The position numbers and the translations under genes are program-made. The notes under the pieces were generated by a model, which saw only the letters and a list, made by a program, of their open reading frames with translations, was not told the origin of the DNA and did no database searches. 64,000 nucleotides of DNA from an uncultured Bacteroidales bacterium. Its GTDB lineage: Bacteria; Bacteroidota; Bacteroidia; Bacteroidales; F082. This document shows positions 12,310 through 27,633 of the stretch, piece after piece (the stretch's first letter is position 1; each line of letters opens with the position of its first letter). Location of the stretch: assembly GCA_900318085.1 (NCBI GenBank), contig ONJF01000012.1, positions 7,926 through 71,925 on the forward strand, read 5' to 3'.

Positions 12310-12441
12310 AATGTGGGACAAAAATAGGAATATTCCAGTTGCATGAAGGCATTCTACGATGTTTTTTGGCATGGCTTTGTGAAAAAAAACACCGAAACGG
12401 CAAAAAACAGCACCATTCATTTCCAGCTTATGCAACAAAAT

Positions 12442-12469
12442 GGCACAGGCTCTCTTTTTCTTTGCAACG
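12442..12469 (+). repeat. Right-half copy of the island hairpin/-7 module (GGCACAGGCTCTCTTTTTCTTTGCAACG)
   Basis: Shares GGCACAGGCT + T-tract + CTTTGC with the copies at 17928, 20815, 21961 and 23018. No left arm is present. Confidence 0.55.
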
Positions 12470-12554
12470 AAAAAAAGTTTTTTTCTCGTCATAGTTGAAA
12501 AACTACGGATTGTGTTCTATAGAATAAAGTTGAACAAAAAAAAAGGAGAAAGCC

Positions 12555-14213: not shown

Positions 14214-14254
14214 TCCGGTCTCCTAATGAAAGACAGAACAATGTAAAGATTATC

Positions 14255-14283
14255 GAGCCTGTGCCGCAATGCGGTGCAGGCTC
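14255..14283. terminator. Hairpin between convergent genes (bidirectional terminator candidate)
   Basis: GAGCCTGTGCCGC-aat-GCGGTGCAGGCTC. Overlaps the psuG stop. Confidence 0.5.
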
Positions 14284-15190
14284 ATCTCATTTCCTTGGCC
14301 ACACGCGCCGCCAAGCGGGCGTTGTTCAACACCAGTTGGATATTCGAAGCGAGGCTGTCGCCACCCGTAAGGTCTTTGATGCGCGCTAACAAATAAGGCG
14401 TCGTCTCCTTGCCGTGAATGCCTAACCTCTTGGCATCTGCCACGGCCTCGTCGATGGCGGCGTTGATGCGGTCGGCATCCATGGAATACTCCTCTGGGAT
14501 GGGGTTGGTGACCAACATGCCACCACCGAGTCCCATCTCCTGCTTGGCGATGAAGGCCTGGGCGACCTCCTCGGGAGTGTCGAGGCGATAATCCACCTTG
14601 AAACCGCTCTTGCGGGTGTAGAAAGCGGGCAACTCCTCCGTGCCATAGCCGATCACCGGCACACCCTTGGTCTCGAGATACTCAAGGGTGAGTCCCAAAT
14701 CAAGAATCGACTTGGCACCGGCACAGATGACCATGACTGGAGTGCGGGCCAACTCCTCCAAGTCGGCAGAGATGTCCATGGTGATCTCTGCGCCTCGGTG
14801 CACGCCACCCACGCCACCTGTGGCAAACACGCGGATGCCTGCCAATGCGGCAATGATCATCGTCGTGGCCACCGTCGTGGCGCCATCTTGTCCGCGTGCC
14901 ACGAGCACAGGCAGGTCACGGCGCGAAGCCTTGGTGACAGCAGTGCCTTTTTTGCCCAAATATTCAATCTCCGATGGGGTTAATCCTGCCTTCAAGCGGC
15001 CTCCGATGACGGCGATGGTGGCAGGCACTGCCCCTTCGTCGCGGATGGTCTGTTCAACCCGCAACGCCGTCTCCACATTCTGGGGATAGGGCATTCCGTG
15101 GGATATAATAGTCGATTCAAGAGCCACGACGGGCTTTCCGCTTTGCAATGCTTCAGCCACTTCGGGCGAGAGGTCAAGGTATTTATTCAT
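14282..15190 (-). CDS. psuG: Pseudouridine-5'-phosphate glycosidase
   Basis: ORF trimmed to MNKYLDLSPEV. ALESTIISHGMPYPQN and GGVGGVHRG motifs. Confidence 0.85.
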   Translation of the reverse strand: MNKYLDLSPEVAEALQSGKPVVALESTIISHGMPYPQNVETALRVEQTIRDEGAVPATIAVIGGRLKAGLTPSEIEYLGKKGTAVTKASRRDLPVLVARGQDGATTVATTMIIAALAGIRVFATGGVGGVHRGAEITMDISADLEELARTPVMVICAGAKSILDLGLTLEYLETKGVPVIGYGTEELPAFYTRKSGFKVDYRLDTPEEVAQAFIAKQEMGLGGGMLVTNPIPEEYSMDADRINAAIDEAVADAKRLGIHGKETTPYLLARIKDLTGGDSLASNIQLVLNNARLAARVAKEMR

Positions 15191-16193: not shown

Positions 16194-16229
16194 GGCTTAG
16201 TGTTTTTATTACAGCTGTTGTTGTTGGTG

Positions 16230-16315: not shown

Positions 16316-16344
16316 GTGGTAGGTGCAAATTTTGCACATACCAC
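16316..16344. promoter_or_regulatory. 29-bp near-perfect palindrome (operator candidate) in the divergent region
   Basis: GTGGTAGGTGCAAA-t-TTTGCACATACCAC, with 13 of 14 arm positions matching. Confidence 0.45.
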
Positions 16345-16402
16345 TATTTGTCAAGGAAAATAACGTGAGTATTATGCACGTTAATACACAAATTTGAGTC
16401 TC

Positions 16403-16717
16403 ATGTCACGGAACAACGAATTCTTTCATGCCTGCAAGGTCGATAATTGGTACATTTTTGAGCATACCGAATACGAATGGGACGACATCGTGAACGCCTT
16501 CATTGCGGGAGGCTTGTATGCCGACAGAAACCCCAGAATCCAATGGGTGAAACTCACCGAAGAAACGGTCAAGGAATTGTTTGACTATGCGAGATACTTG
16601 GCCTACCGAGCGGATTACGATGAGTACTATGTACTTGACGGAACGACCATTAAGGAAACTTTCAACGAAGGGAAATACACCCATGCAAGGTTGATTGAAG
16701 GGCCAGGGATGATTTGA
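16403..16717 (+). CDS. Hypothetical protein
   Basis: 104 aa from the first ATG. No domain recognised. Confidence 0.4.
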   Translation: MSRNNEFFHACKVDNWYIFEHTEYEWDDIVNAFIAGGLYADRNPRIQWVKLTEETVKELFDYARYLAYRADYDEYYVLDGTTIKETFNEGKYTHARLIEGPGMI

Positions 16718-16768
16718 GGATTAAGAAAGAGTGATTTGGCAAAAGCACATTGTATCTTGTTCCGTCCC

Positions 16769-17809
16769 TTAAAGGCGGATTCCATCCGCCCCTTGCCTCT
16801 CCACAAGCAACCTCCCCATCTCGTTAAGCGCAACAAAACGATACCGCAAAGAATCGGTTGCAACAGACGTGTATTCGAAATGTTTGGCCTCAGCCTTGCG
16901 GCGAAGCGTTCCCTCGACAGATTGACGGATGAAAGGTGCACTGAACGACTCTTCCGTCGGCTCCAAAAGCAAAAGCTTTCCTTGAGAGCACGCCTCAAAA
17001 TAAACACCACCAGGCTTGTAATATCGCTCATGCGGCGAACCTTCCTCGGGGAAGCCTTCGTTGAGAAGAATGACCAAAGGGAATCCTTGAGTCCGAAGCG
17101 TCCGCGCAATGAGTTGCTCACCCTTGCTAATGGAAGCCGTATAGGTTACCGCTCCATTTTGCGCCGACCGCAACACCGCTTTCAGCCTTTCTTGGACTTG
17201 CTCGTCCGTGGCATTGCGCGACATTTCCACCAATTGACGCTCTGGCCAGTCGAGAAGGAAATGATTGCCCATCGAGGTGAAAAGCAAACCACAAGTTTCT
17301 GTCCTACGATACATTCGAAAAAGGTCAGGGTTTTGTTTGCGGTGCCATGCCCGCTCTGCGTTGGCGTAAACATAGTTTATCATCGCCTGAAGTTGTCCTT
17401 TATGCGTGAGCACTCGGTAATATAGCGGGCCATCGTACAAGTTTCCTTCATAGCCCATCTTTCGGGCTTCAGCCTTGCAGCCTTGCATATAGCCTCGCAC
17501 CACTTCTTTGATGCTCCGCGTCATGGTGCGTCGAACCTGCAAAACAATATGGTGATGGTCGGGCATGACCTTGTCTGCAAGGATTTTTATCTCAGGGCAA
17601 AGTTCAAGCATCCGTTGCTGTTGGTTGATTAATACCCAACCTATAGCCGTCTTTTCCACCTCGGACTGAATGCCATTGTGGGTAAGTTTGCCGAAAATGG
17701 GTTCACGCCCTTTGGCCACCATAGTCACATGCACGATGCACGGCTTGTGCCATGCGCCAAGCTTCTGCCAAGTGGAAATCTCATTAGATATGTTGGTGTT
17801 GGTAGTCAT
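16769..17809 (-). CDS. Y1/HUH transposase-like protein (IS200/RayT-like core with a long C-terminal extension)
   Basis: ORF trimmed to MTTNTNISN. VMPDHHHIVLQV fits the HUH motif. INYVYANAERA fits the Y-x2-N-P/A-x2-A tyrosine helix of REP-associated transposases. Confidence 0.5.
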   Translation of the reverse strand: MTTNTNISNEISTWQKLGAWHKPCIVHVTMVAKGREPIFGKLTHNGIQSEVEKTAIGWVLINQQQRMLELCPEIKILADKVMPDHHHIVLQVRRTMTRSIKEVVRGYMQGCKAEARKMGYEGNLYDGPLYYRVLTHKGQLQAMINYVYANAERAWHRKQNPDLFRMYRRTETCGLLFTSMGNHFLLDWPERQLVEMSRNATDEQVQERLKAVLRSAQNGAVTYTASISKGEQLIARTLRTQGFPLVILLNEGFPEEGSPHERYYKPGGVYFEACSQGKLLLLEPTEESFSAPFIRQSVEGTLRRKAEAKHFEYTSVATDSLRYRFVALNEMGRLLVERQGADGIRL

Positions 17810-17927
17810 TTTCGTTTGGGGCTTTTGCGGCGGGAATGGAATTCCCGTGGAAGGGACAGAACACAATGCAAAAGTAAGATTTATTTCGATACAAAAAGTT
17901 TATTGCTCCATTTCGGGGAAAACCATT

Positions 17928-17972
17928 AGCCTGTGCTTCAATTCGGCACAGGCTTTTGTTTTCTTTGCTGCG
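17928..17972 (+). repeat. Island module copy: hairpin + T-tract + -7-like box
   Basis: AGCCTGTGC-ttcaattcg-GCACAGGCT (9-bp stem), then TTTTGTTTTCTTTGCTGCG. The ATG follows 59 nt later. Confidence 0.65.
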
Positions 17973-18030
17973 AAAAACGGTCAAATTGACAAATATAAAC
18001 AAAACATAAACAACATAAAATCAATAAAAT

Positions 18031-18702
18031 ATGAAAAGTAGCAGATATACAAACATCGGTAAAGGCTCAATTGTCGGGGAAGGCATCTTCGTAAGATTTC
18101 CCGAGCTCGTCCCTGCTTCTTTGGACAATTATTGGAACAGCAAGAAGCATAAAAAGCTGTTGATAGTTGGGGAAAGCAACTACTTTGACGATGATGTCGG
18201 CAGCATTTTTAAGGACCCAAAAGCGTGGTATTCGGGAGCGGACAAACAACATTTGATACCAGAAGAAAAAAAGAAAGATGTAAGCAACTTCAAAGGATAT
18301 AAGACTTTTGATAGGTTGTGTAAATCCATGAATGAAGTGTTGAACGAAGCACTTTGTGAGCATGTCTATGAGAAGGCATTGTTCTATAATTATTTTCTGC
18401 GTCCAGCCACGGTGAGGAAAAACAATAGATCATTCAAAAAAGATTGCACCCAATTAGACCGTGATGTGGCAGGCAGCGCATTATGTGGAATCATCGACCT
18501 TGACCGTCCTGATGTGGTTATATTCGTCAGTAAATATGCACACTCGGAATTTATGAAGCACTTGGAATCAAACGAATTATCGTATGATATCCGGATTGAT
18601 TTCGTCAATCATCCTGCACATCTTGCCTCATGGCATCACAGAAATGGAAACGGGAAACAGAAGTTCGAAAGACTATTGAGGGAATACTGGATGGTAAAAT
18701 AA
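18031..18702 (+). CDS. Hypothetical protein with a uracil-DNA-glycosylase-superfamily-like motif pattern
   Basis: 223 aa. LLIVGESNYFDD sits where UDG motif A (GEAPG/GQDPY) lies. YNYFLRPA...C..L...P.VVIFVS fits the middle of the fold. FVNHPAHL fits motif B (HPS). By-eye only. Confidence 0.35.
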   Translation: MKSSRYTNIGKGSIVGEGIFVRFPELVPASLDNYWNSKKHKKLLIVGESNYFDDDVGSIFKDPKAWYSGADKQHLIPEEKKKDVSNFKGYKTFDRLCKSMNEVLNEALCEHVYEKALFYNYFLRPATVRKNNRSFKKDCTQLDRDVAGSALCGIIDLDRPDVVIFVSKYAHSEFMKHLESNELSYDIRIDFVNHPAHLASWHHRNGNGKQKFERLLREYWMVK

Positions 18703-18742
18703 TCACATTTTTATCAACCCCTGTATGTTTCATAGAAATGTT

Positions 18743-18750
18743 TACCTTTG
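18743..18750 (+). promoter_or_regulatory. -7 box TACCTTTG
   Basis: Matches TAnnTTTG, 57 nt before the ATG at 18807. Confidence 0.45.
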
Positions 18751-18806
18751 CTGCAAATATCATCTTGGCATTGTGCCTACAAGTGCAAAACCCGAACTGG
18801 CCGCCC

Positions 18807-19151
18807 ATGAAAAACTATCAATGCAAGAAATGTGGCATTCTGATTAAAACAGAGCGACAGCCCAATGCGTTCAATTGTCGGGTTGGAAACTACCACGATT
18901 GGAACGACCTCGGCGAAGTCGGTTGCGAGAACTACCGATGCAAGAAATGCGGTCTTCTCGTCGAAAGCAAAAGCGCCCCATCTTCTTTTGGATGCACTGA
19001 TGGAGGCTACCACAATTGGCAAGATTTATGTCCTATAGGCACCGATGTCTATCAATGCAAGAAATGTGGAATTCTGTTGTATGCCTCAAAGTCGCCCAAT
19101 GCATTTGACTGCCCTTCGGGAGAGTGTCATCAGTGGAATAAATTGAATTGA
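18807..19151 (+). CDS. Small protein made of three tandem 39-aa zinc-ribbon-like repeats
   Basis: ORF 18630..19151 trimmed to MKNYQCKKCG. There are three repeats of Y-x-C-K-K-C-G-x14-C-x5-H-x-W-x-x-L (C-x2-C...C-x5-H). Confidence 0.6.
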   Translation: MKNYQCKKCGILIKTERQPNAFNCRVGNYHDWNDLGEVGCENYRCKKCGLLVESKSAPSSFGCTDGGYHNWQDLCPIGTDVYQCKKCGILLYASKSPNAFDCPSGECHQWNKLN

Positions 19152-19171
19152 AAAACAAAAAGATAACTGTT

Positions 19172-20785
19172 ATGAATAGTCAAGATAACGATTTATTATT
19201 GCTTGAAAGCATGCTTGGGATTGCTGTTTCAAGAACCGCAGGAGTTCAAGTCGCTGTGGATAAAAATCTTCCCGTGCCTTTCCCTAAAAGTATTCATTAC
19301 GAGTTGTACAAGAACCACATAGAATTGCATATTGAAAGTTCTACATATAGATCATTATGCGAATATCTTGAAAGGACTCTTCCTAATAACGACATCGCTA
19401 AAACTGAAAAAAGAGGTTTTTGCGAATACGCTTATGTATTGAACAGAAGAGTTGAAGGATGGAGTAATATAGAAGAGTTAGGGAATGCCATTATCGAACT
19501 GCGTAATATCGTTGAACCTGTGCTAATGCAGTATTGCGAACAAATAGCCGAGAACTTTGAACTAGCAAAGGTTCTTGGCGATTATTATGAAGCACAAGAA
19601 GCGGCCTTGCCATTTCATATCAATGTAATTGACGAGCTTCATGCCAACGAAAACGCTCACACAAGGATTCTCACGCATTTACTCAAATACAAAGAAGATG
19701 GGAAGCTTGTTATTCTTGCTTCTTTTCTAAAACAACTTCCTACATTCAATGTTGGGTCTATTGATATTGAGAAGTCAAAAGTCTATTTCAACAGAGACAA
19801 TATTGATGGCTTGATAGAGAAAGATGGCGAGTATGCTGTCATCATTGAAAACAAAATCCACTGGGCTGTTGATCAAGACAAACAGATTGAACGTTATGTG
19901 AATACAGAAATAGAAAGAGGTGTCCCTTCGGATAACATTTGGGTAATATATCTGACGAGAGACGGAAGAAAAAAAGTTGAAAGTTATAGTCTTACGAAAA
20001 AGACAAAAGAGATTTTGGGTGACCGTTTTCTGGAAATGGATTATTACCATAACATCCTCCCATGGCTTAAAGATACTGTTTTGCCTAATTGTAGAGTTAG
20101 AGAGGAATGGTTGGAGTCTGCTATTAAACAGTACATTGATCATTTAGAAGGATTGTTTGATATAAGGGATTCAAGAAAAGTGTTCCGTAAAAAGGTACAG
20201 GGACAAATAGCCAATAGTATAGGTTGTACGGAAGAAATGTCAAGAGGTGAGGTCTATTCAAAATTCCATGCCTATTTACATACTTTGGAAGAATTGCAAA
20301 ATATTGTCAGCAATTCCATGGAGAGTTTGATAAAACCTATAATAGAACGATTGCAAAATACTACCATAGAAGTGTTAGGCGAACTATGTCCTAATGAAGA
20401 ATTTGGTTTTTACAATGGCATACATAATGGTTTTTATCAAGTGTTCTTAAAGAAATGGACAACGAAAGTCCATTTCGAGTGGATCCCATTAAATGAAAAA
20501 CGTTTGCTTTCTGGAACCGAATACATTTTGGTATTACATGTTGAGCAAAATGACATTCATGAACGTTTCAATCAAGTTCTAAGTGACAATTTTTTGATGA
20601 CTAAGGCGAAAGAATTAAGTTTAAAGAAAACTGATAAGACTACCTTTTATAAGAATGTGATTACAACAAATAGATCAATGTCTGACATGACACATGAGGA
20701 GTTTTCCATATTTCTTCGTGAAGCATACAAAGATGTAAATGACATTCAGATGTTCGTATCAGAATACATTCTAAATGTTGAATAG
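19172..20785 (+). CDS. PD-(D/E)XK nuclease family protein (PDDEXK_4-like core with N- and C-terminal extensions)
   Basis: Trimmed to the ATG (MNSQDND). INVIDELHANENAHTRILTHLLKY followed by NIDGLIEKDGEYAVIIENKIHW (D...ExK) and QIERY. Confidence 0.6.
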   Translation: MNSQDNDLLLLESMLGIAVSRTAGVQVAVDKNLPVPFPKSIHYELYKNHIELHIESSTYRSLCEYLERTLPNNDIAKTEKRGFCEYAYVLNRRVEGWSNIEELGNAIIELRNIVEPVLMQYCEQIAENFELAKVLGDYYEAQEAALPFHINVIDELHANENAHTRILTHLLKYKEDGKLVILASFLKQLPTFNVGSIDIEKSKVYFNRDNIDGLIEKDGEYAVIIENKIHWAVDQDKQIERYVNTEIERGVPSDNIWVIYLTRDGRKKVESYSLTKKTKEILGDRFLEMDYYHNILPWLKDTVLPNCRVREEWLESAIKQYIDHLEGLFDIRDSRKVFRKKVQGQIANSIGCTEEMSRGEVYSKFHAYLHTLEELQNIVSNSMESLIKPIIERLQNTTIEVLGELCPNEEFGFYNGIHNGFYQVFLKKWTTKVHFEWIPLNEKRLLSGTEYILVLHVEQNDIHERFNQVLSDNFLMTKAKELSLKKTDKTTFYKNVITTNRSMSDMTHEEFSIFLREAYKDVNDIQMFVSEYILNVE

Positions 20786-20814
20786 AAATCAGCTTAAAGG
20801 TTGTTTTTTTGACA

Positions 20815-20857
20815 CTTGTGCCTCAATTCGGCACAGGCTTTCTTTTTCTTTGCGGCG
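20815..20857 (+). repeat. Island module copy
   Basis: CTTGTGCC-tcaattc-GGCACAGG, then CTTTCTTTTTCTTTGCGGCG. The ATG follows 17 nt later. Confidence 0.65.
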
Positions 20858-20873
20858 TTAATCGTAACGCATT

Positions 20874-21539
20874 ATGACCATACAAAAAGCAACATCAACG
20901 ACAAATCCAACCGTTAAAGTAATCGGCATTGGCTGTGGCGGCAACAATATCGTCAACCATATAAGCCAAAGCAATTTGGAAGGTCTCTCCTATGTGGCCT
21001 GCGATATGGATGCCAAAGTGCTCAAGAAATCAGTAGCCGCCACGACCCTGCAACTCGGCAAAGACGGACTTGGAAGCGGCAACAGCCCTGAAAAAGCACG
21101 CATCGCGGCTGAAGAAAAAACAAATACCATAAAAAAGTTGTTCGACGACAAACCTTCATTGGCCTTTGTCGTCACCTGTCTTGGAGGAGGATGCGGCACG
21201 GGTGCGGCTCCCGTAATCGCCCGTGAGTCAAAAATGATGGGCATCACGACTGTTGTCCTTGCCACTTTGCCATTCGAATTGGAAGGCGAACGCAGATTCT
21301 CGCAAGCCTCGGAAGGAATTCAAAACTTGGCAAGAAACGCGGATGCCCTCTTTCTGCTCAACAACCAGTACATCAAAGAACAATACTGCGACTTGCCCAT
21401 AAACCAAGCCTTCGCAAAGGCCGATGACCTGTTGGCGGAAGTAGCAAAATGCCTAATCCGTTCCATAACGGAGCCACAACAAGAGACAAAGAGAACCTCA
21501 AGAATAAAGGAGTTTTTCAGAAGACTGAAATGCAAATAA
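20874..21539 (+). CDS. FtsZ-like protein consisting only of the N-terminal GTP-binding domain
   Basis: 221 aa. KVIGIGCGGNNIVNHI (T1), CLGGGCGTGAAPVIA (tubulin signature), LPFELEGERR, LFLLNNQ and AKADDLLAEVAKCLIRSITEP (H7), then a short basic tail. No T7 loop or C-terminal domain. Confidence 0.75.
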   Translation: MTIQKATSTTNPTVKVIGIGCGGNNIVNHISQSNLEGLSYVACDMDAKVLKKSVAATTLQLGKDGLGSGNSPEKARIAAEEKTNTIKKLFDDKPSLAFVVTCLGGGCGTGAAPVIARESKMMGITTVVLATLPFELEGERRFSQASEGIQNLARNADALFLLNNQYIKEQYCDLPINQAFAKADDLLAEVAKCLIRSITEPQQETKRTSRIKEFFRRLKCK

Positions 21540-21544
21540 AAGCG

Positions 21545-21970
21545 ATGGCATCGAAAACATTCAACACGGCAACTATCGCCCGTCTGCTCAGTCACGAGGA
21601 TGAGCACGGCATGGGGCGTGTCTTCATGTACACTTTCCTTAATGAAGTGATACGGCAGAAAAGGCCATTCCCGTTCGATTGTGAATCCGCTCAAGTAAAC
21701 CCCAACTTGATGATTGTTGATAAACAAGGTAGAAGCATCGCCGTTGAGTATAAGCGCAATCGGCTTAATTTAACCCTCAACGACCAACAAAGTGAGATTT
21801 CCCCACGCATCGAATACAAAGATGAAGCTTATCGTCAAGTCCTTCTTGATTGGCTTGCCGCCTGCATCCAATACACTTCGCTGCAACCTGAACTTCGCAA
21901 AGAACTAACAAGATATGCCCAATCCATTCAAAGAAGAATTTGGTTTACAAAAGTTTTGCCTTTGCATTAA
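21545..21970 (+). CDS. Miniature PD-(D/E)XK-like protein (collapsed paralog of the 19172..20785 core)
   Basis: 141 aa. LSHEDEHGMGRVFMYTFL, IVDKQGRSIAVEYK and YRQVLLDWLAAC parallel HTRILTHLL, EKDGEYAVIIENK and YHNILPWLKDTVLPNC of the large nuclease. Starts 5 nt after the FtsZ-like stop. An alternative ATG at 21530 overlaps that gene by 10 nt. Confidence 0.45.
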   Translation: MASKTFNTATIARLLSHEDEHGMGRVFMYTFLNEVIRQKRPFPFDCESAQVNPNLMIVDKQGRSIAVEYKRNRLNLTLNDQQSEISPRIEYKDEAYRQVLLDWLAACIQYTSLQPELRKELTRYAQSIQRRIWFTKVLPLH

Positions 21971-22001
21971 TTCGGCACAATCTTTTTGTTATCTTTGCCG
22001 C
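21961..22001 (+). repeat. Island module copy (degenerate left arm, canonical -7 box TATCTTTG)
   Basis: TTTGCATTAATTCGGCACAATCTTTTTGTTATCTTTGCCGC. Overlaps the preceding stop codon. Confidence 0.55.
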
Positions 22002-22015
22002 ATAAAACCAACCTC

Positions 22016-22984
22016 ATGGAAAACCAAATCGTCATATACCAAACCGACAACGGTCAGCCTGCCATTGATGTCAGGCTGGAAAACGAAACTGTATGGCTTA
22101 CACAAGCACAGATGGCGATGCTTTTTCAGAAGGATCAGTCTGTTATTGCACGTCATATCGCCAATGTTTTTAAAGAAGGTGAATTGGATAGAAATAGTAA
22201 TATGCAAATTTTGCATAATACTCTTTCCAAGTACAAACCAACCACCATTTACAATCTCGATGTCATCATCTCCGTAGGTTACCGAGTAAAAAGTCAGCGA
22301 GGTGTGCAGTTCCGCCAATGGGCCAATAAAGTGCTGAAAGACTATCTGCTGAAAGGCTATGCCGTGAATGAGAAGATTCGCCGAAACCAAATTGGGGAAC
22401 TGCGGCAATTGGTGCAAATGGTGGGCCGGACGTTGCAAAACCAGCCCTTGCTGAAAAGCGAAGAGAACCAAGCCTTGTTTGACATTGTTGTGGATTACAC
22501 CTACGCCCTTGACACGCTTGACGATTACGATTATCAACGTTTGGGCGTGAAAGAGACCACGCAAGAGGAGAAGTTTCAAGCGACATACGACAACGCCATG
22601 CAAGCCATAGCAGCATTACGCGAGAAGTTCGGGGGCAGTTCGCTGTTCGGCAATGAGAAAGACGACTCCTTCAAAAGCAGCATTGGTCAAATCTACCAGA
22701 CTTTTGGCGGTGAAGACCTATATCCGAGCGTGGAAGAGAAAGCGGCCATGCTACTGTATCTCGTCACCAAAAACCATTCGTTCAGCGACGGCAACAAACG
22801 CATTGCGGCCACGCTGTTCCTGTGGTTCCTCAACAACAACGGCATCCTCTACCGCGAAGACGGCAGCAAACGTATTGCCGACAACACCTTAGTCGCACTG
22901 ACCTTGATGATCGCCGAGAGCAAGCCCGAAGAGAAGGATGTAATGGTGAAGGTGGTGGTGAACTTGATTAATCAGAAGAATTGA
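22016..22984 (+). CDS. RhuM-family N-terminal domain fused to a Fic/Doc (death-on-curing type) domain
   Basis: Trimmed to MENQIVIYQTDNGQPAIDVRLENETVWLTQAQMAMLFQKD (RhuM-like). The C-terminus carries the Doc motif HSFSDGNKRIAA. Confidence 0.7.
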   Translation: MENQIVIYQTDNGQPAIDVRLENETVWLTQAQMAMLFQKDQSVIARHIANVFKEGELDRNSNMQILHNTLSKYKPTTIYNLDVIISVGYRVKSQRGVQFRQWANKVLKDYLLKGYAVNEKIRRNQIGELRQLVQMVGRTLQNQPLLKSEENQALFDIVVDYTYALDTLDDYDYQRLGVKETTQEEKFQATYDNAMQAIAALREKFGGSSLFGNEKDDSFKSSIGQIYQTFGGEDLYPSVEEKAAMLLYLVTKNHSFSDGNKRIAATLFLWFLNNNGILYREDGSKRIADNTLVALTLMIAESKPEEKDVMVKVVVNLINQKN

Positions 22985-23017
22985 TTTATTGAGCAGATTA
23001 ATTGCATAATTTTCAAG

Positions 23018-23060
23018 CATGTGCTGTGATTTGGCACAGGCTCTTGTTTTCTTTGCAGCG
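23018..23060 (+). repeat. Island module copy
   Basis: CATGTGCTGTGATTTGGCACAGGCTCTTGTTTTCTTTGCAGCG. The ATG follows 25 nt later. Confidence 0.6.
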
Positions 23061-23084
23061 TAGAAACAACAAAACCTAAATGCA

Positions 23085-23618
23085 ATGAACGATTATTATG
23101 GGAGCGTCCCTTTAGAGGAATACGAACAAATCCTGGCCAACCGCGATTATTGGGACAACATTTCTGGCGAATGGCAAATGCGTTCAAAAATGGAAGACAA
23201 ACTTGTGCGATTAGGGACATTCGTGCAAAGAGGCGGCGACCTAAACCGCGTGATTGCCCTTTATGCAGAAGGACGGGAATACACCTACCGTGTGACGATA
23301 CAACATTGTATAGAACGGTATCTTGAGGTATTAACCAAAAAACGCATTCAGAATCTGACACTTCGCTTGTACAAACTCGAAAAAGAAGAAGCGGTAAAAC
23401 TGCTTTCCGAGATGCTGAAAGTGAGCATCGGCGTAGATTTCAGGTACGACAAATACACCTCAAGACAGGTTTCTTTCGGAATTCTCGACACTAGGAATCT
23501 GGATGCCGAAGGAATACTCTCTGCCATAGAACAGGAGCATCGCCAGGCACATCCCAACGAAAGCATTGAGGAGGTCAGGAAAAGAGCTCATACTTGGATT
23601 GGGGATAGTTGGTGGTGA
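23085..23618 (+). CDS. Hypothetical protein
   Basis: 177 aa. No domain recognised. Confidence 0.45.
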   Translation: MNDYYGSVPLEEYEQILANRDYWDNISGEWQMRSKMEDKLVRLGTFVQRGGDLNRVIALYAEGREYTYRVTIQHCIERYLEVLTKKRIQNLTLRLYKLEKEEAVKLLSEMLKVSIGVDFRYDKYTSRQVSFGILDTRNLDAEGILSAIEQEHRQAHPNESIEEVRKRAHTWIGDSWW

Positions 23619-23633
23619 TATAGAGATAATTAT

Positions 23634-23641
23634 TATTTTTG
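23634..23641 (+). promoter_or_regulatory. -7 box TATTTTTG
   Basis: Matches TAnnTTTG, 25 nt before the ATG at 23666. Confidence 0.45.
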
Positions 23642-23665
23642 CAATGCAATAAAACTTCTAAAAAA

Positions 23666-24559
23666 ATGAAACAAGAAAATTCGATTATTACAATTCAAGA
23701 ACTCTTGAAAGACAGAGGTATTGATTTTGATGCTAAAAAAGTTAAACTAGTAAGACATGACAGTTTAAGAACTCCTAGAGTTCAAGATAAAATCATTTTT
23801 GATGGTACATTATACGAAATGTATAGACGTGATTATCAAAGATTTATTAATTACCAAAACGAGCAAAAAATTAAGAACTTTAAAAATGTAGATTATATTG
23901 TTTCTTTTTTAAGCGAAGAAGGAACAAGGGCAAGATTAATTGGTGTATATCAAAACCTAGGGATAAAAAACACGATTGATGGTGATGGCGCTATTTTTAA
24001 TTTTCAAGAAATACTGGCTTTTTCAAACCTTAAAGACAAAATCGTCATTGATTGGGGGAAAGGAACTCGCCAGTGGATTCAAAACTGGGAAACAAAAAAA
24101 GAAATAATAAGAATTGACGAGGGTCTAATAGATAGAGACATTCCTCTTTTTACTCGTTATGAAGATGTAATACTCAGTTTTTCAGAGTTAAAGAAAATCA
24201 TTGAGTCAAATGACTCAGAATGGAAGTCCGTATTGGAAGCTTGCAACTGTGTATATCTCATTTTGGATAAAAGTAACGGGAAGCAATACGTAGGAGTCAC
24301 ATATAAGAATAGTCAAGAAGGACAAAAAGGTGGGATTTGGAATAGATGGTCAGAATATGTCAAGACGAATGGTCATGGCAATGATAAAACATTAAAAGAA
24401 AAATGTGATAATAATCCGCATTATGCTGAACTCAATTTTCAATGGAGTATCTTGGAAACATTGCCAATAAATGTAATTCCCACAATTGCTATTGATAGAG
24501 AAACTTTATACAAAAAGAAACTTGGCACCAGGAACCACGAAAACTATAATAACAATTAA
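23666..24559 (+). CDS. GIY-YIG nuclease domain protein with an unknown ~190-aa N-terminal domain
   Basis: Trimmed to MKQENSI. The C-terminal CVYLILDKSNGKQYVGVTY...WNRWSEY...FQWSILE fits GIY-(10-11)-YVG, R and E. The gene is visibly much more AT-rich than its neighbours. Confidence 0.6.
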   Translation: MKQENSIITIQELLKDRGIDFDAKKVKLVRHDSLRTPRVQDKIIFDGTLYEMYRRDYQRFINYQNEQKIKNFKNVDYIVSFLSEEGTRARLIGVYQNLGIKNTIDGDGAIFNFQEILAFSNLKDKIVIDWGKGTRQWIQNWETKKEIIRIDEGLIDRDIPLFTRYEDVILSFSELKKIIESNDSEWKSVLEACNCVYLILDKSNGKQYVGVTYKNSQEGQKGGIWNRWSEYVKTNGHGNDKTLKEKCDNNPHYAELNFQWSILETLPINVIPTIAIDRETLYKKKLGTRNHENYNNN

Positions 24560-24655
24560 ACTTTGATAGCAAAAACTAAATCAGGAAAAAACGTCAAGCT
24601 CGTCAGTACCATTCCAGCAAAATGCCACTCCGCGTAACAAATTAAGCATTTATAT

Positions 24656-24812
24656 AGCCTGTGTCATATACTTGCACAATTTATGCTCCATAAAACCAAT
24701 CCCTTGGATGAAGAGTTAGAGCGCGAGGCAACCTGTGCAAAAATAGCACAAGTTCAAACAGAAGGGAAAAGGATGGTGAAAGGGGTGGTGGGCCTTATCA
24801 ATCAGAAAACTA
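24656..24812 (+). pseudogene. Internally deleted remnant of a second module + RhuM-Doc cassette
   Basis: AGCCTGTG...GCTCCATAAAACCAATCCCTTGGA parallels GCCGCATAAAACCAACCTCATGGA at 21997-22020. ATGGTGAAAGGGGTGGTGGGCCTTATCAATCAGAAAAC parallels the last codons of 22016..22984 (ATGGTGAAGGTGGTGGTGAACTTGATTAATCAGAAGAA). Confidence 0.55.
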
Positions 24813-24818
24813 AATACT

Positions 24819-25727
24819 ATGTCCAAAAACCAAATCAACAAATATGTCTGGCTCGTAGAAACGCTCTACCATGCCAAGAAAATCACCCTAAAGGAAATCA
24901 ACCGCAGGTGGCTCGATACCGATTTGAGCGAGGGATTAGAGATTCCGCGCCGCACGTTCCACACCTGGAAGAACACGGTGGAAGATATGTTCGGCCTCGT
25001 CATCATGTGTGACAAGAGCGACGGCGACCGCTATTACATCGAGAACCGCGAGGTGCTTGAGGACGACGGTCTGCAACGCTGGCTGCTCAGCACCATGTCG
25101 GTCAACAACACACTGTTGGAAAACAAAGCGCTCAGCGACCGCATCCTGTTGGAAAGCATCCCCTCAGGCCAGGGCTTCCTCGCCACGGTCATGGAAGCCA
25201 TGAAGAAAAACCGATTGCTGGAAATCACCTATAAAGGCTTTTGGAGCGAAAGCGAGCACACCTTCCCCGTGGCGCCCTACTGCGTGAAGCTGTTCCGTCA
25301 ACGGTGGTACATGGTGGGCAACAGCGTCTACGAAGACAAGATCCGAATCTATTCCTTGGATCGCGTACTGGAGGCCAGACTGTCGGAGGAGACCTTCAAA
25401 TACCCCAAGAAATTCAGCCCAGAGAACTACTTCAAAGGCTGTTTCGGCATCATTCGCGACGAGGATTGCCCCATCGAGACCGTGAAGCTGAAAGTAAGCG
25501 CCGACCAAGCCAACTACCTGCGTTCCCTACCCTTGCATCCTTCACAAAAGGAGTTGGTGCATACAGGCGAATACAGCATCTTCTCCGTTGAGGTGCGACC
25601 CACCTTCGACTTCCAGCAAGAACTCCTTTGGAACGGTGATGCACTTGAAGTGTTGGAACCACTTTGGCTGCGTAAAGAGATGGCTGGCATGGTCAAACGG
25701 ATGTGGAACAATTACAACAAGAAATGA
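24819..25727 (+). CDS. WYL-domain transcriptional regulator (HTH-WYL)
   Basis: 302 aa. N-terminal wHTH-like segment, and RQRWYMVGNSVYEDKIRIYSLDRV matches the WYL core. Confidence 0.7.
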   Translation: MSKNQINKYVWLVETLYHAKKITLKEINRRWLDTDLSEGLEIPRRTFHTWKNTVEDMFGLVIMCDKSDGDRYYIENREVLEDDGLQRWLLSTMSVNNTLLENKALSDRILLESIPSGQGFLATVMEAMKKNRLLEITYKGFWSESEHTFPVAPYCVKLFRQRWYMVGNSVYEDKIRIYSLDRVLEARLSEETFKYPKKFSPENYFKGCFGIIRDEDCPIETVKLKVSADQANYLRSLPLHPSQKELVHTGEYSIFSVEVRPTFDFQQELLWNGDALEVLEPLWLRKEMAGMVKRMWNNYNKK

Positions 25728-26218
25728 ATTCCTTCGCCGCCATAGACTTCGAGACCGCCAACAACGAGCGCACTAGCGTGTGCAGCGTCGGCGTGGTAAT
25801 TGTGAAAGAAGGCGAGTTCGTGGACTCCTTTTATTCGCTAATCCAGCCTGAGCCGAATTATTACCTCTATTGGAACACCCTCGTCCACGGTATCACCAAA
25901 GAGGACACCGAGGATGCGCCAGTGTTTCCTTTTGTCTGGCAAAAGATAGAGCCGCTTATTGAGGGTCTGCCTCTCGTGGCGCACAACAGCCCTTTCGACG
26001 AAGGTTGCCTAAAGGCCGTGATGCGCTGCTATCAGATGGATTACCCCGACTATCAGTTCTACTGCACCTGTCGCGCCTCGCGCAAACACTTCGGAAAGCT
26101 GCTGCCCAACCACCAGCTGCACACCGTGGCAGCAGCCTGCGGCTACGATTTAATCAACCACCATAACGCGCTCGCCGATGCCGAAGCCTGCGCCTGGATT
26201 GCACGAGAGATTTTGTAA
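25724..26218 (+). CDS. DEDDh 3'-5' exonuclease (DnaQ/epsilon-like)
   Basis: FAAIDFETAN (Exo I), AHNSPFDEGCL (Exo II) and HNALADAEA (Exo III, H-x4-D). ATGA overlap with the WYL gene stop. Confidence 0.75.
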   Translation: MNSFAAIDFETANNERTSVCSVGVVIVKEGEFVDSFYSLIQPEPNYYLYWNTLVHGITKEDTEDAPVFPFVWQKIEPLIEGLPLVAHNSPFDEGCLKAVMRCYQMDYPDYQFYCTCRASRKHFGKLLPNHQLHTVAAACGYDLINHHNALADAEACAWIAREIL

Positions 26219-26222
26219 TTCC

Positions 26223-26371
26223 ATTCGGAATTTACTGTAATTTTGCAGAAAATTCCGAATAGAAATGGTCATCAAATCGGAATTTATTGTAATTTTACAG
26301 AAAAATCGGAATAAAATTAGTTTCAATTCGGAATTTATTGTAATTTTGCAGAAAATTCCGAATAAAAATGG
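26223..26371 (+). repeat. Three tandem ~51-bp copies of a promoter/operator unit; the third contains the ATPase start codon
   Basis: The unit is ATTCGGAAT-TTAYTGTAATTTTGCAGAAA-ATTCCGAAT-ARAAATGG, a 9-bp inverted repeat bracketing the -7 box TAATTTTG. Copies lie at 26223-68, 26275-320 (degenerate) and 26326-71. Confidence 0.75.
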
Positions 26372-27633
26372 AACAAACTTATATCAAGCGCGAGACTTAC
26401 CTCCAAAAACTCATCGACCGAATGGACAATGGCGAAGTGAAAATCGTCACCGGTCCAAGGCGATGTGGAAAGTCGTGGCTCCTCAAGCGCATCTTCAAGG
26501 ATTATCTGGTCTCCAATGGTGTAGCCGAAGAAAGCATCATCATCGTTTCCTTCGACATGGATGACGAAGAGGAAATGTATGGCGACCTCACCGTACGTGG
26601 AGCGCTGAAAGAGTTCCTTTACAGCCGCATCACTTCGCCAAAAACCAATTATTATGTCATTCTAGATGAAGTGCAAGAGGTGGAGGGTTTTGAAAAGATT
26701 GTCAACGGGCTGAATGCCAAGGACAATGTGGATGTTTACATCACTGGGAGCAATTCACACTTCCTTTCTTCCGACATCCGAACCATCTTCCGCGGTCGCG
26801 GTGACGAAGTGCGAGTTTATCCACTTTCATTCAAGGAGTTTTGCTCAAACAGGACCGAGCCTATTAACGAACTTTGGAAAGAATATTACACCTACGGGGG
26901 CATGCCTGGATTGCTCAACCACCATACTCCCGAGCAGAAAGTGGCTTATTTGCAACGGCTTTGGAGCAAGACCTACCTTGACGATGTGGTGGAACGCAAT
27001 CATGTGAAAAACCGCGAGGCCCTTTCTGCGCTTGCCGATGCGCTATGTTCCTCCATCGGTTCCTTGACCAATCCCAACCGCATCAGCAATGTGCTGCAAA
27101 GTGTTCAAAAGACCAAAATCGACCCAGAAACTGTTGGAAACTACATTGATTACCTTGAGGAAGCCTTCCTTTTCGAAGGTGCAAAACGCTTTAATATCAA
27201 GGGAAACAAATATTTTGAAAGCATTAAGAAATACTATGCCGTCGATGTAGGACTACGCAATGCCAAACTCAATTTCCGTCAGCAAGAAATCACTCACATC
27301 ATGGAGAATGTCATATATAATGAATTGAGGATGAGAGGTTTCAGCGTAGATGTGGGATTGGTGGAAAGTCGCGAAATGCGTGAAGGCAAGATGGCCTACA
27401 TACAATACGAAATCGACTTCATCGCACAAAACGGGATGGACAAGTACTATATCCAATCCGCCTTCAAGATGGACAATGCCGAAAAGCAAGAAAATGAAAT
27501 CCGCTCTCTGCAAAAAGTGGACGACAGTTTCAAAAAAATCGTCATCACTGGAGACGACATTGCCACTTATACCGATACAAAAGGTATAGTTTATATGGGA
27601 TTATTTCAGTTTTTAAAGGGAGAATTATTATGA
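26368..27633 (+). CDS. AAA-type ATPase of the AAA_14/DUF4143 class
   Basis: 421 aa. Walker A GPRRCGKS, Walker B YVILDEVQ. Architecture typical of DUF4143 ATP-binding proteins. Confidence 0.65.
   Translation: MEQTYIKRETYLQKLIDRMDNGEVKIVTGPRRCGKSWLLKRIFKDYLVSNGVAEESIIIVSFDMDDEEEMYGDLTVRGALKEFLYSRITSPKTNYYVILDEVQEVEGFEKIVNGLNAKDNVDVYITGSNSHFLSSDIRTIFRGRGDEVRVYPLSFKEFCSNRTEPINELWKEYYTYGGMPGLLNHHTPEQKVAYLQRLWSKTYLDDVVERNHVKNREALSALADALCSSIGSLTNPNRISNVLQSVQKTKIDPETVGNYIDYLEEAFLFEGAKRFNIKGNKYFESIKKYYAVDVGLRNAKLNFRQQEITHIMENVIYNELRMRGFSVDVGLVESREMREGKMAYIQYEIDFIAQNGMDKYYIQSAFKMDNAEKQENEIRSLQKVDDSFKKIVITGDDIATYTDTKGIVYMGLFQFLKGELL

Follow-up and report, generated by a model that had tools for sequence, protein, structure and literature searches.

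A repeated palindrome-promoter module heads the operons of a Bacteroidales island with defence genes and is probably operated by a linked WYL regulator

A module of 46 bp, made up of a palindrome and a promoter, is repeated before the genes of one island in the 64-kb stretch of rumen Bacteroidales DNA that was analysed (the window) and is always co-oriented with a gene. The module is a regulatory element rather than a joint for the swapping of cassettes. Its sequence pattern makes it probable that it is a promoter operated by a WYL protein, with activation favoured over repression. A narrower reading, that it is the operator through which the DriD-like WYL regulator of the island switches the operons on together, is tentative, at somewhat below even chances.

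Table 1. Positions in the window of the modules, genes and units of the island.
Feature	Position	Strand	Description
Module before the wHTH-AAA ATPase gene	12425..12470	+	right arm and box exact, left arm degenerate (AGCTTATGC)
AAA ATPase, 552 aa	12555..14213	+	module-headed; IetA-like by ATPase domain
Strong 13-bp hairpin	14254..14285	+	13 pairs; repeat family D2; between the convergent ATPase and psuG genes
Module copy 1	17928..17973	+	9/10-bp perfect palindrome; heads the UDG-like/zinc-ribbon/PD-(D/E)XK unit
Unit 1	18031..20785	+	UDG-like gene, triple zinc ribbon, PD-(D/E)XK nuclease
UDG-like, 223 aa	18031-18702	+	unit 1
Triple zinc ribbon	18807-19151	+	unit 1; own TACCTTTG box at 18745-18752
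PD-(D/E)XK nuclease (PDC-S26)	19172-20785	+	unit 1; AT-rich
Module copy 2	20813..20858	+	left arm ACTTGTGCC; heads the FtsZ-GTPase-only gene and PD-(D/E)XK fragment
Unit 2	20874..21970	+	FtsZ-like GTPase domain (221 aa) and, overlapping it, a 146-aa PDDEXK_4-like ORF
Variant module	21957..22003	+	GGCACAATCT...TATCTTTGC, canonical TATCTTTG box; heads RhuM-Fic
RhuM + Fic/Doc protein, 322 aa	22016..22984	+	Pfam; PADLOC PDC-S23 8e-142
Module copy 4	23016..23061	+	AGCATGTGC-N9-GCACAGGCT; heads the 177-aa ORF
Unit 4	23085..24559	+	conserved 177-aa ORF without a family, then AT-rich UzuA
UzuA (Uzume defence gene)	23666-24559	+	PADLOC UzuA 2.2e-72; own TATTTTTG box
Decayed variant module and internally deleted RhuM-Fic remnant	24656..24812	+	repeat family D16; leader of the WYL gene
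wHTH-WYL-WCX regulator, 302 aa	24819..25727	+	proposed module binder; Pfam WYL and WCX
DEDDh (DnaQ/RNase T-type) 3'-5' exonuclease	25724..26218	+	coupled to the WYL gene; Pfam RNase_T 1.3e-16; NCBIfam epsilon-like matches

The near-identical copies described in the initial annotation are borne out, as GGCACAGGCTNTNNTTTTCTTTGC has four exact matches on the plus strand of the window (at 12442, 17945, 20830 and 23033) against 0.01 expected from shuffles, none of 100 shuffles reaching four copies, and two further copies, at 21957-22003 and 24656-24708, are degenerate in the way first described. The copy at 12442 had been called a right half only; the right arm is confirmed, but a degenerate left arm is present at 12425-12433. 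The distance from the box to the ATG is 16 to 89 nt in the window, and the genes behind the copies are unrelated to one another as claimed: an AAA ATPase, a UDG-like gene, an FtsZ GTPase domain, a RhuM plus Fic gene and the 177-aa ORF without a family. Variants of the type at 21957..22003 form the promoter of the WYL operon in relatives and lie directly before the WYL gene in three related loci. The hairpin at 14254..14285 (-25.5 kcal/mol, z -5.0) has arms like those of the module but neither the 9-nt spacer nor the box, and is a candidate for an ordinary bidirectional terminator.

In 146 distinct copies from related rumen Bacteroidales the unit is fixed as AGCCTGTGC-N9-GCACAGGCT, followed after 5 nt by a -7-type box, and conserved positions extend from -17 to +28. 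Conservation of the right arm is inflated by its having been part of the search pattern; the left arm and positions -6 to -2 of the spacer lay outside the pattern and are 72-97% conserved. The ATG lies mostly 18-35 nt downstream of the box (137 copies), which fits the earlier reading of this element as a -7 box. A whole-genome search for the motif, as proposed in the initial annotation, gave matches in the island only (3.24-Mb assembly; the bare box TTTTCTTTGC occurs 21 times), so the module is not a generic element before housekeeping genes. Of 121 genomes of the genus 43 contain the motif, as does a single one of the 24 from one sister genus; these counts overstate independence because the compared genomes are related to each other. 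It was absent from 98 genomes sampled from 15 other genera, and a control with the motif read backwards gave no matches. An order-wide DNA-damage regulon was also considered and is not supported, the motif type being found at 3-4 of 79 recA loci in the phylum. Orthologous modules precede the same ATPase gene in seven related loci, and across genomes the module variants remain with their downstream gene.

Known or candidate defence genes of the island, according to PADLOC, are UzuA, PDC-S23, PDC-S26 and PDC-S01; judged by its profile matches the RhuM-Fic/Doc protein is a candidate defence gene. The ATPase matches Pfam AAA (1.1e-23), PADLOC IetA (4e-32) and, below the cut-off, NCBIfam IteA_antiphage (1.8e-28). 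The FtsZ-like GTPase matches Pfam Tubulin (1e-29) and, below the cut-off, ftsZ TIGR00065 (4e-51).

Every array examined ends with a WYL/WCX regulator and a DEDDh exonuclease. The exonuclease is 82-97% identical next to WYL genes even where the WYL proteins are merely 55-60% identical. One genome has 11 modules within 20 kb, the final one 22 nt before the WYL gene; in the window the module upstream of the WYL gene is a decayed copy only. Within the genus 35 genomes contain both the motif and a close WYL gene, 8 the motif only, 7 the WYL gene only and 71 neither. Most of the motif-only genomes are assemblies of 71-78% completeness, and modules without a close WYL gene are also found in two genomes of 93% and 95% completeness. 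Because WYL gene and modules are physically linked, their co-occurrence is by itself no proof of regulation.

The palindrome shifts symmetrically with the WYL allele, and four variants exist within the one genus. Allele A (WYL identity at least 74%) has the arms given above, allele B (58-60%) has AACATGTGC/GCACATGTT, allele C (55%) AACTTGTGC/GCACAAGTT and allele D (55%) GAGGTGTGCC/GGCACACCTC, while an orthologue in Muribaculaceae (43%) is associated with ACCTCTGCC/GGCAGAGGT. The spacing between palindrome and box is identical in all five. In allele C parallel changes are seen in several orthologous modules. The better-kept half of the palindrome is the right arm. Symmetric changes between alleles are also expected from selection for a hairpin together with homogenisation of modules within an array.

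The palindrome could instead be the operator of another, unlinked factor, for example a lineage-wide one recognising TGTGC-N9-GCACA. In generalised form, TGTGC-N9-GCACA-N13-TTTGC, the pattern recurs across many lineages of the Bacteroidota, where it precedes recA, UvrD helicase, AddB-like nuclease, Cas5d and CBASS genes; in those genomes the WYL paralogues carry separate palindromes, which differ from these sites, and in one such genome a WYL homologue was not found. Against this, the outer positions of the half-sites switch among four variants with the WYL allele inside a single genus, a depth at which an unlinked core factor should be near-invariant. Arrays of the four variants have just two genes in common, the WYL gene and the exonuclease, the latter lacking a DNA-binding domain beyond its nuclease fold, and in the genome of the window the core pattern with the box is restricted to the island. 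An unlinked factor is therefore regarded as very improbable.

Of the two interpretations in the initial annotation, a shared promoter or operator for independent conflict genes is favoured by the restriction to the island, the orientation with the genes, the fixed distance to the box and the agreement of the palindrome with the WYL allele. As a WYL-operated promoter the unit would be self-contained, with a palindromic operator, a T-rich spacer with a constant length of 5 nt, a TTTCTTTG box of the Bacteroidota -7 type and GCAGCG as a short conserved start region. A dimer of the wHTH-WYL-WCX protein would sit on the palindrome, over the would-be -33 element, and, in the manner of Caulobacter DriD, bring in RNA polymerase. 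The WYL domain would sense a ligand, probably single-stranded nucleic acid from DNA damage or phage attack, whereupon all module-headed operons would be turned on together. The operon of the regulator itself carries the same operator but a consensus TAnnTTTG box. Three features are signs of activator dependence: allele A boxes have TT for the consensus TA, except in modules 20-22 nt before the WYL gene; no TTTG is found at the usual -33 distance in the modules; and a PLD-nuclease gene has a consensus promoter of its own, to which the module is added 45-70 nt further upstream.

The WYL protein can also be imagined as a repressor of the BrxR/CapW type that covers the -33 region and keeps the defence operons silent until a ligand releases it. 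The characterised WYL regulators of defence islands, BrxR and CapW, are repressors, and the island carries the defence genes named above. Such repressors bind inverted repeats of 10-11 bp with a 5-bp spacer, and in their sites one half-site is better conserved and one is sufficient (PMC9122601); here too the right arm is better kept. The operator overlaps the core promoter, and in the -33 region it could equally block RNA polymerase. The kinship of the protein points the other way, its closest kin by both profile and fold being the activators DriD and PafBC. Profile comparison with the PDB gave 7e-14 for DriD and 1e-12 for PafBC against 0.04 for CapW and no match for BrxR, and a Foldseek comparison of the structure model gave 3e-14 for DriD over the full length against 2e-8 and 8e-7 for CapW and BrxR. 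The non-consensus box and the missing -33 element of the regulon promoters also argue against repression, and a consensus promoter could not be repressed from a module lying 45-70 nt upstream of it. Repression is accordingly considered unlikely.

The stem-loop with its T-run had earlier been read as an intrinsic terminator. Extended to the whole array, this reading needs no dedicated regulator: hairpin and U-tract end the upstream transcript, the box restarts transcription, and the element has spread by duplication from unit to unit. Intrinsic terminators are in use in Bacteroides (PMC7366714). Of 134 copies, 108 follow the end of a co-oriented ORF, with a distance to the stem that is mostly 20-33 nt, and the stem is more intact below such an ORF (8.41 of 9 pairs) than in the other 26 copies (7.65 of 9). 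Perfect copies pass a simple terminator scan, and these may additionally terminate the upstream transcript. As a general property termination is weak, since the copy at 17928 (-19.2 kcal/mol, z -4.3) is the sole significant folder; the other four of the five non-decayed copies in the window fold no better than shuffles, and the gene upstream of the 17928 copy is divergent, leaving it no co-oriented gene to terminate. The stop codon of the ORF preceding the variant module, in the unit with the PD-(D/E)XK fragment, lies within the spacer and hence in the supposed loop, and the loop bases are conserved. Of the 146 deviating cells in allele A only 6 are compensatory, and G.U is not favoured (43 G.U, 30 A.C and 67 other mismatches). 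Within an array the stem sequence is uniform; it differs between WYL alleles and has changed in parallel among orthologous modules, and a plain terminator needs none of this. An insulator of this kind is thus regarded as quite improbable.

The second interpretation in the initial annotation was a joint for cassette exchange, either a hairpin recombination site like attC or a patch of homology for the shuffling of units. Units do differ in presence among genomes, and homology blocks between genomes start exactly at the left arm (17928, 20817 and 23016-23020), those shared with five genomes running from 23016-23020 to the stop codon at 23616-23618. Direct repeats of the variant module with the start of the gene (21957-22020 and 24656-24708) flank a 2.7-kb segment with RhuM-Fic, the 177-aa ORF and UzuA, an arrangement that homologous recombination between modules would leave behind. 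Alignment to an intact orthologue confirms the RhuM-Fic duplicate with an internal deletion noted earlier; locus L073 has about 960 bp that are missing here (flanks corresponding to 24612-24680 and 24772-25682 of the window), and the remnant is also present in L069, of which 13929-15455 aligns to 24689-26218.

Several differences in gene content are nevertheless not bounded by modules, so that the island varies only partly in module-bounded units. The AT-rich patches pointed out earlier are confirmed (GC 0.34-0.38 at 19.2-20.8 kb and 0.30-0.34 at 23.6-24.6 kb, with 0.45-0.56 around them), and the recently acquired AT-rich genes, the PD-(D/E)XK nuclease and UzuA, occupy slots without a module on the left. 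The block 19152-20816 is swapped for other genes in L069 and L068, likewise with no module on its left, and the slot after the 177-aa gene varies in content among genomes. Other changes are plain deletions: the first four codons of the FtsZ-like gene of unit 2, MTIQ, derive from a deleted upstream gene by an in-frame deletion relative to L069. Neither a tyrosine recombinase nor a Y1/HUH transposase is encoded on the contig (the genome has three tyrosine recombinases in other places); a neighbouring 346-aa protein has a sub-threshold RAYT-like match only and no PDB relative. The conservation is one of sequence and not of fold alone, the module is placed 5' of the genes and bears a promoter, and its variants keep the same downstream gene across genomes. 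Together this makes a cassette-exchange joint scarcely credible.

Compared with integron attC arrays, the island shares a repeated hairpin-capable element between unrelated genes, in one direction and beside a conserved platform gene. In attC it is structure and not sequence that is conserved, the sites are 3' of promoterless cassettes and an adjacent IntI integrase is needed; none of this holds here. Like intrinsic (Rho-independent) terminators most modules have a G+C-rich stem and then a T-run shortly past a stop codon, but they differ in the long conserved loop of 7-9 nt, the stem sequence common to all units, the few compensatory changes and the weak predicted stems of many copies.

BrxR and CapW are WYL repressors of BREX, CBASS and defence islands. 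They resemble the present system in that a WYL regulator lies beside a mosaic defence island, with an inverted-repeat operator near its own promoter, a second operator within the island and one half-site better conserved. The similarity in sequence and fold is much weaker than to DriD, BrxR has two operators per island while up to 11 module-headed promoters are found here, and the promoter features point to activation. In Moraxellaceae the WYL activator DdaA controls genes for the response to DNA damage and for phage defence; its palindromic motif CGWCA-N5-TGWCG is found in promoters of repair genes and of defence genes such as CRISPR-Cas and RM (PMC12392091). Palindromes of the module type likewise precede defence genes and, in other Bacteroidales, also recA, uvrD, cas5 and CBASS genes. 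The genome-wide core regulon of DdaA has replaced SOS, whereas the module is limited to one island, and no more than the few recA loci mentioned above have the motif type.

The closest parallel is DriD of Caulobacter crescentus, a WYL protein that activates a DNA damage response independent of SOS. Sequence identity to it is only 18-20%, the half-sites here differ from those of DriD and are longer (9-10 bp with N7-9; DriD, 7-N7-7) and the promoter is of the Bacteroidota -7 type. The putative regulon is a single accessory island, patchy in the genus and without recA in this genome, and the putative regulator has a DEDDh exonuclease coupled to it. The palindromes bound by DriD are of the form 7-N7-7, the spacer being AT-rich, and one of them lies in the promoter of DriD itself (PMC10853764). 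Its sites occur in promoters that have no -35 element; they extend into the -35 position and keep a constant distance from the -10 element (PMC13004042). The island agrees with DriD in the full-length architecture of wHTH, helical linker, WYL and WCX, in a palindrome with an AT-rich spacer in several promoters and in that of the regulator, in a site at a -35-type position with fixed distance to the promoter box and no upstream element, and in a putative regulon with nucleases and a possible division-related gene.

The pattern of the initial annotation, a hairpin with T-tract and -7 box before unrelated genes, was recovered four times in the window, all on the plus strand, with 0.01 matches expected from shuffles. 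The degenerate copy before the RhuM-Fic gene and a decayed copy were both seen on reading the sequence. In the assembly as a whole (3.24 Mb in 93 contigs, the window being C53:7926-71925) the full motif is confined to these sites, and the bare box TTTTCTTTGC occurs 21 times. The full motif, found in one island only, genome-wide, is therefore no general promoter or terminator here; a generic motif was what the initial annotation had named as contrary to its proposal. An Rfam scan of window positions 12000-27000 gave no match at E up to 1. A sigma-54 promoter, which GGCAC...TTGC resembles, was rejected on the GG-GC spacing, which is 22 nt and not 12.

Positions of the features discussed (window coordinates unless a compared locus, L, is named)
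Feature	Position	Strand	Remark
Motif match	12442	+	
Motif match	17945	+	
Motif match	20830	+	
Motif match	23033	+	
Degenerate module before RhuM-Fic	21957-22003		
Decayed module	24656		
Duplicated RhuM-Fic start	21957-22020, 24656-24708		flanks a 2.7-kb segment
Starts of inter-genome homology blocks	17928, 20817, 23016-23020		exactly at left arm
Hairpin between ATPase and psuG genes	14254-14285		13 bp, -25.5 kcal/mol
Gene of 346-aa protein	16769-17809	-	divergent from first module
AT-rich patch	19.2-20.8 kb		GC 0.34-0.38
PD-(D/E)XK block	19152-20816		variable slot
PDC-S26 PD-(D/E)XK gene	19172-20785		
MTIQ codons of the FtsZ-like fusion	20874-20888		compared region with 222-aa source gene: L069:12123-12830
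AT-rich patch	23.6-24.6 kb		GC 0.30-0.34
Uzume UzuA gene	23666-24559		
WYL-exonuclease pair	24819-26218		
Three tandem units	26219-26371		50-52 bp each
Promoter region of PLD-like nuclease gene	L069:7872-7990; L177; L071:8431-8498; L181:5440-5560		own consensus promoter TAYTATTTTTG

An exact-match scan of species-representative genomes gave 67 stretches, every one of them from a Bacteroidales MAG of rumen or gut origin (RUG, Candidatus Limimorpha, F082). Together with the window and eight further stretches, fetched from the window's genus and one sister genus, these loci contain 146 distinct copies when up to four mismatches are allowed. The conserved unit spans -17 to about +28, numbered from the first G of GGCACAGGCT, and has the consensus AGCCTGTGC - TTCAATTC(G) - GCACAGGCT - TTYKT - TTTCTTTG - CAGCG. 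Arm positions are conserved up to 76-99% and spacer (loop) positions -6 to -2 to 72-97%, the right arm lying inside the search pattern and the left arm and spacer outside it. The distance from the end of the right arm to the -7-type box is 5 nt in the 146 copies. The module always has the orientation of an ORF, and the box lies 18-35 nt before the ATG in most of 137 cases, a spacing consistent with the short leader that follows a -7 box in Bacteroidota.

The sigma-ABfr promoter of Bacteroidota consists of a -7 box, TAnnTTTG, and a -33 TTTG (PMC7366714). The box in the regulon modules, TTTCTTTG, agrees with TAnnTTTG at five of the six specified positions, and no TTTG is present at the usual -33 distance in the 146 copies. 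Regulon modules that go with WYL allele A, the type of the window's own regulator, have TT in place of the consensus TA. Before the WYL gene the box is TATCTTTG, and modules 20-22 nt before WYL have TA.

Within the window's genus 43 of 121 genomes have the motif (at most two mismatches). With at most one mismatch it is in 1 of 24 genomes of one sister genus and in none of 98 sampled from 15 other genera of the family; a control with the motif read backwards gave 0 in all these genome sets. Copies are clustered, with a maximum of 11 on one contig inside 20 kb (genome G190). Among the 121 genomes the motif and a close WYL orthologue (at least 74% identity) occur together in 35 and neither occurs in 71. 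Eight, mostly assemblies that are 71-78% complete, have the motif and no close WYL, and seven have a close WYL and no motif. Given the linkage of the genes and the relatedness of the compared genomes, this co-occurrence is an association and does not amount to regulation.

The module-headed genes belong to 31 families. These include an AAA ATPase (IetA-like), UDG-like, FtsZ GTPase domain, RhuM-Fic, PLD nuclease, HAD_SAK_2, YgjP/SprT-like peptidase, bpMoxR, FtsK-like, DUF262/GmrSD and DUF6140 proteins and several families without any match. PADLOC matches in the window to UzuA (2e-72), PDC-S23 (RhuM-Fic), PDC-S26 and PDC-S01 mark the island as one of defence type. All larger stretches examined have an array that ends with the wHTH-WYL-WCX gene followed by a DEDDh exonuclease gene, and the housekeeping neighbours of this pair are constant (ABC transporter, GH20, psuG/psuK, carbonic anhydrase, amidohydrolase). 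The AT-rich patches noticed by eye were borne out by GC content and are defence genes, UzuA and PDC-S26, the former with a consensus TAnnTTTG box of its own. The internally deleted duplicate cassette is likewise real, a RhuM-Fic remnant. Adjoining the same island, directly 5' of the AAA_14/DUF4143 ATPase gene (PDC-S01), are the three tandem units, which resemble one another at 80-94%; in each of them an inverted repeat ATTCGGAAT...ATTCCGAAT flanks a TAATTTTG box, a palindrome-plus-box of different design.

The palindrome, the putative operator, varies with the WYL allele. The other alleles are only 50-60% identical to that of the window, and the paired exonuclease is still 82-93% identical. 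Over the loci compared (L076-L085, L176-L182) the regulator and its operator diverge much faster than the exonuclease partner. Beside the divergent alleles the unit has the same box spacing and different outer half-site bases, and alleles A to D are all found inside one genus. In allele C the orthologous ATPase gene and the 177-aa-type gene are preceded by modules that changed in parallel. No genes other than WYL and the exonuclease are shared by all these arrays. In the WYL gene's own promoter the palindrome, where present, lies 31-50 nt before the ATG in orthologues with 43%-98% identity; the window's WYL has only a decayed module, plus an intact variant 2.8 kb upstream.

Palindromes associated with the WYL variants (L, locus; G, genome)
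WYL variant	Identity to window's WYL	Palindrome	Occurrence
Allele A	at least 74%	AGCCTGTGC-N9-GCACAGGCT	146 copies
Allele B	58-60%	AACATGTGC-N9-GCACATGTT	L077, L078, L085, L103; two more promoters in G255
Allele C	55%	A(A/G)CTTGTGC-N9-GCACAAGTT	L081, L178
Allele D	55%	GAGGTGTGCC-N7-GGCACACCTC	L179, three copies
Muribaculaceae orthologue and one in G253	43% (Muribaculaceae)	ACCTCTGCC-N7-GGCAGAGGT	L092, L163

Such co-variation is the pattern expected if a dimeric regulator and its operators shifted jointly in specificity. For a hairpin maintained through compensatory change, all modules of an array would also have to be homogenised. Concerted evolution of the modules within a genome was rejected, as the variants stay with the downstream gene across genomes, and the modules are therefore stable parts of their units. 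Read from these sequence comparisons, the unit is probably a promoter module dependent on the WYL regulator, be it as activator or as repressor. That the palindrome is instead the operator of another factor has little likelihood.

The regulator consists of a wHTH, a linker and the Pfam domains WYL and WCX, and the AlphaFold model (pLDDT 74.6) has a wHTH, linker helices, a WYL barrel and WCX. A profile of 15 orthologues searched against solved structures in the PDB matched DriD (7e-14), PafBC (1e-12) and CapW (0.04), with no match to BrxR. A Foldseek search with the model gave DriD as best match over the full length (3e-14, about 330 columns), followed by PafBC (4e-11), CapW (2e-8) and BrxR (8e-7). 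BrxR and CapW are WYL regulators that repress (PMC9122601). A repressor of this type would suit a WYL gene encoded beside UzuA, PDC-S23, PDC-S26 and PDC-S01 with an inverted-repeat operator; however, both proteins rank behind DriD and PafBC in fold and are distant or absent by profile, and repression is possible but less probable than activation.

Activation by WYL is tentatively favoured, as a possibility somewhat short of an even chance, on the likeness to DriD and, further, because allele-A regulon modules have a TT box where those before WYL have TA, because the -33 element is absent, and because of the arrangement at the PLD-like nuclease gene. This gene has its own consensus promoter in all genomes, and in some genomes only, a module is added 45-70 nt farther upstream, which gives tandem promoters. 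From that distance the optional module could not repress the consensus promoter.

The unit might also be a terminator-promoter joint without a dedicated regulator, in which case the finding would be an ordinary one. The arms pair 9/9 in 57% of 134 copies, and 108 of the 134 have a co-oriented ORF upstream. Intact stems are commoner where such an ORF ends upstream (8.41 of 9 pairs vs 7.65 elsewhere), with the stop codon mostly 20-33 nt before the stem. Against this, the loop is conserved, and of 1168 consensus pair cells in the allele-A set 146 deviate, only six of them by compensation; the others are 43 G.U, 30 A.C and 67 other mismatches, and G.U is not favoured. Six compensatory cells were reached in 31 of 2000 shuffles, and selection for an RNA hairpin was rejected on this weak covariation within allele A. 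Of the five non-decayed window copies, just one, at 17928 and preceded by a divergent gene, exceeds shuffles in fold stability (-19.2 kcal/mol, z -4.3); the remaining copies have z from -1.7 to +0.3. A conserved spacer, few compensations, weak folds and one unit whose spacer contains the stop codon of the preceding ORF fit a pair of half-sites recognised by a protein better than an RNA stem under selection, and a joint of this kind is quite unlikely. Given the better pairing after co-oriented ORFs and the spacing from stop to stem, intact copies may have a secondary role in termination.

The hairpin between the convergent ATPase and psuG genes is a candidate for an ordinary terminator. Its arms, GAGCCTGTGCC / GGTGCAGGCTC, are module-like, without spacer and without box, and a similar form without spacer, AAGCCTATGCCGCGGCATAGGCTT, is found in one of the allele C loci (L081).

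The initial annotation had as its second option an exchange of cassettes at attC-like joints, with gene content changing in module-bounded units. On the unit boundaries the picture is mixed: the left arm is precisely where homology blocks between genomes start, but the modules are ignored by the AT-rich inserts and by the deletion behind the MTIQ fusion. The PD-(D/E)XK and UzuA slots are variable and lie behind conserved, module-headed genes; the first follows directly on the stop codon of the zinc-ribbon gene, the second on that of the 177-aa gene, and neither has a module on its left. The window's FtsZ-like gene was formed, independently of modules, by an in-frame deletion that joined the first four codons (MTIQ) of the upstream gene to codon 4. 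The source of MTIQ is the 222-aa gene that precedes the FtsZ-like gene in other genomes, and the fused form is found in five genomes. The likeness to attC did not hold. No tyrosine recombinase (PF00589) was found on C53, the contig of the window, the matches being on contigs C20, C93 and C38 only. Integron attC sites are conserved in structure and not in sequence and lie 3' of promoterless cassettes, whereas the module, which includes a promoter box, is conserved in sequence (85-100%) and located 5' of genes. A dedicated recombination joint is very improbable. The duplicated RhuM-Fic start, flanking its segment, suggests that modules can act as homology for ordinary recombination, which would be a by-product and not a dedicated mechanism.

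The 346-aa protein has an orthologue (59% identity) in the same place in a compared locus (L074). It matches the NCBIfam REP-associated tyrosine transposase at 8.6e-6 and 25.7 bits, below the cut-off of 80, and has no Pfam, PF01797 (Y1 transposase) or PDB match; PF01797 has no match on C53 either. A REP/RAYT system was ruled out on these grounds and on the six copies being at one locus.

A relaxed pattern, TGTGC-N9-GCACA-N13-TTTGC, occurs in at least 120 stretches, with about 9 expected by chance by our rough estimate; among the matches listed almost all are from Bacteroidota. Among 44 sites that do not belong to allele A, complementarity at the outer arm positions is 50-64%, and many types of pair occur. 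Some relaxed sites precede recA in three lineages (L086, L100, L101), a UvrD helicase (L136), an AddB-like nuclease (PDDEXK_1, 949 aa; L087, L117), Cas5d (L099), a CBASS SMODS cyclase and an HNH-SAVED effector (L104, L128), and WYL genes. At the repair and defence sites, which are scattered over Bacteroidales lineages, TGTGC-N9-GCACA keeps a constant distance to a TAnnTTTG box. A generalised palindrome-plus-box also precedes a family of tiny ORFs of 40-50 aa with a motif like SMISSE/NTFISSD in several further Bacteroidales lineages (L105, L110, L112, L130, L089, L114, L133, L109, L129).

An order-wide DNA-damage regulon is not supported, since only 3-4 of 79 recA loci in Bacteroidota have this motif type, the WYL paralogues in genomes with recA, uvrD and addB sites have other palindromes, and in the window's genome the relaxed core pattern with box is restricted to the island. 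One genome with such sites shows no WYL homologue. The LexA (SOS) box of Bacteroidetes, GGA-N5-TCC or CTAA-N5-TTAG with an S24 repressor, was rejected; the motifs differ and its regulators are reported absent from Bacteroidales (PMC8565304). As a speculation, on balance doubtful, DriD-like WYL proteins of Bacteroidales could be damage or infection switches and the palindrome-plus-box a portable inducible promoter that recruits defence and repair genes operon by operon, regulator and operator co-diversifying into mutually insulated specificities (at least four in one genus).

In Proteobacteria and Actinobacteria, phage defence is coupled to the sensing of DNA damage by known WYL regulators (BrxR, CapW, DriD, PafBC, DdaA), and a literature search found none described for Bacteroidota. 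Systems of this kind, in which defence and repair genes have palindromic operators for a WYL regulator, are already known; new here, if true, would be the Bacteroidota host, the notably modular multi-copy promoter and the natural specificity variants. The locus is a clean testable case, with a short module of known geometry in at most 11 copies per array and natural regulator and operator variants that permit swap experiments. The uncharacterised UDG-like, FtsZ GTPase-only and 177-aa ORF genes are predicted to be co-induced with known defence genes. For Bacteroidales of rumen and gut the locus also offers a practical rule by which to annotate islands of this sort, and for Bacteroides genetics a candidate inducible promoter.

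The DriD site, ATACGAC-N7-GTCGTAT, has an AT-rich spacer and is found in several promoters including that of driD itself (PMC10853764). By cryo-EM it overlaps the -35 region at a fixed distance from the -10, in promoters without a -35 hexamer (PMC13004042), and the module shares this layout relative to its -7 box. DdaA controls repair and defence genes together (PMC12392091), to which the relaxed sites before both kinds of gene in Bacteroidales are similar. Regulons of the DriD/PafBC/DdaA type include core damage genes (recA), whereas the palindrome with box is island-only in the window's genome. Common to both are one motif that recurs among several promoters, always at the same place over the -35/-33 region, and the presence of this motif in the regulator's own promoter, as in the WYL orthologues here.
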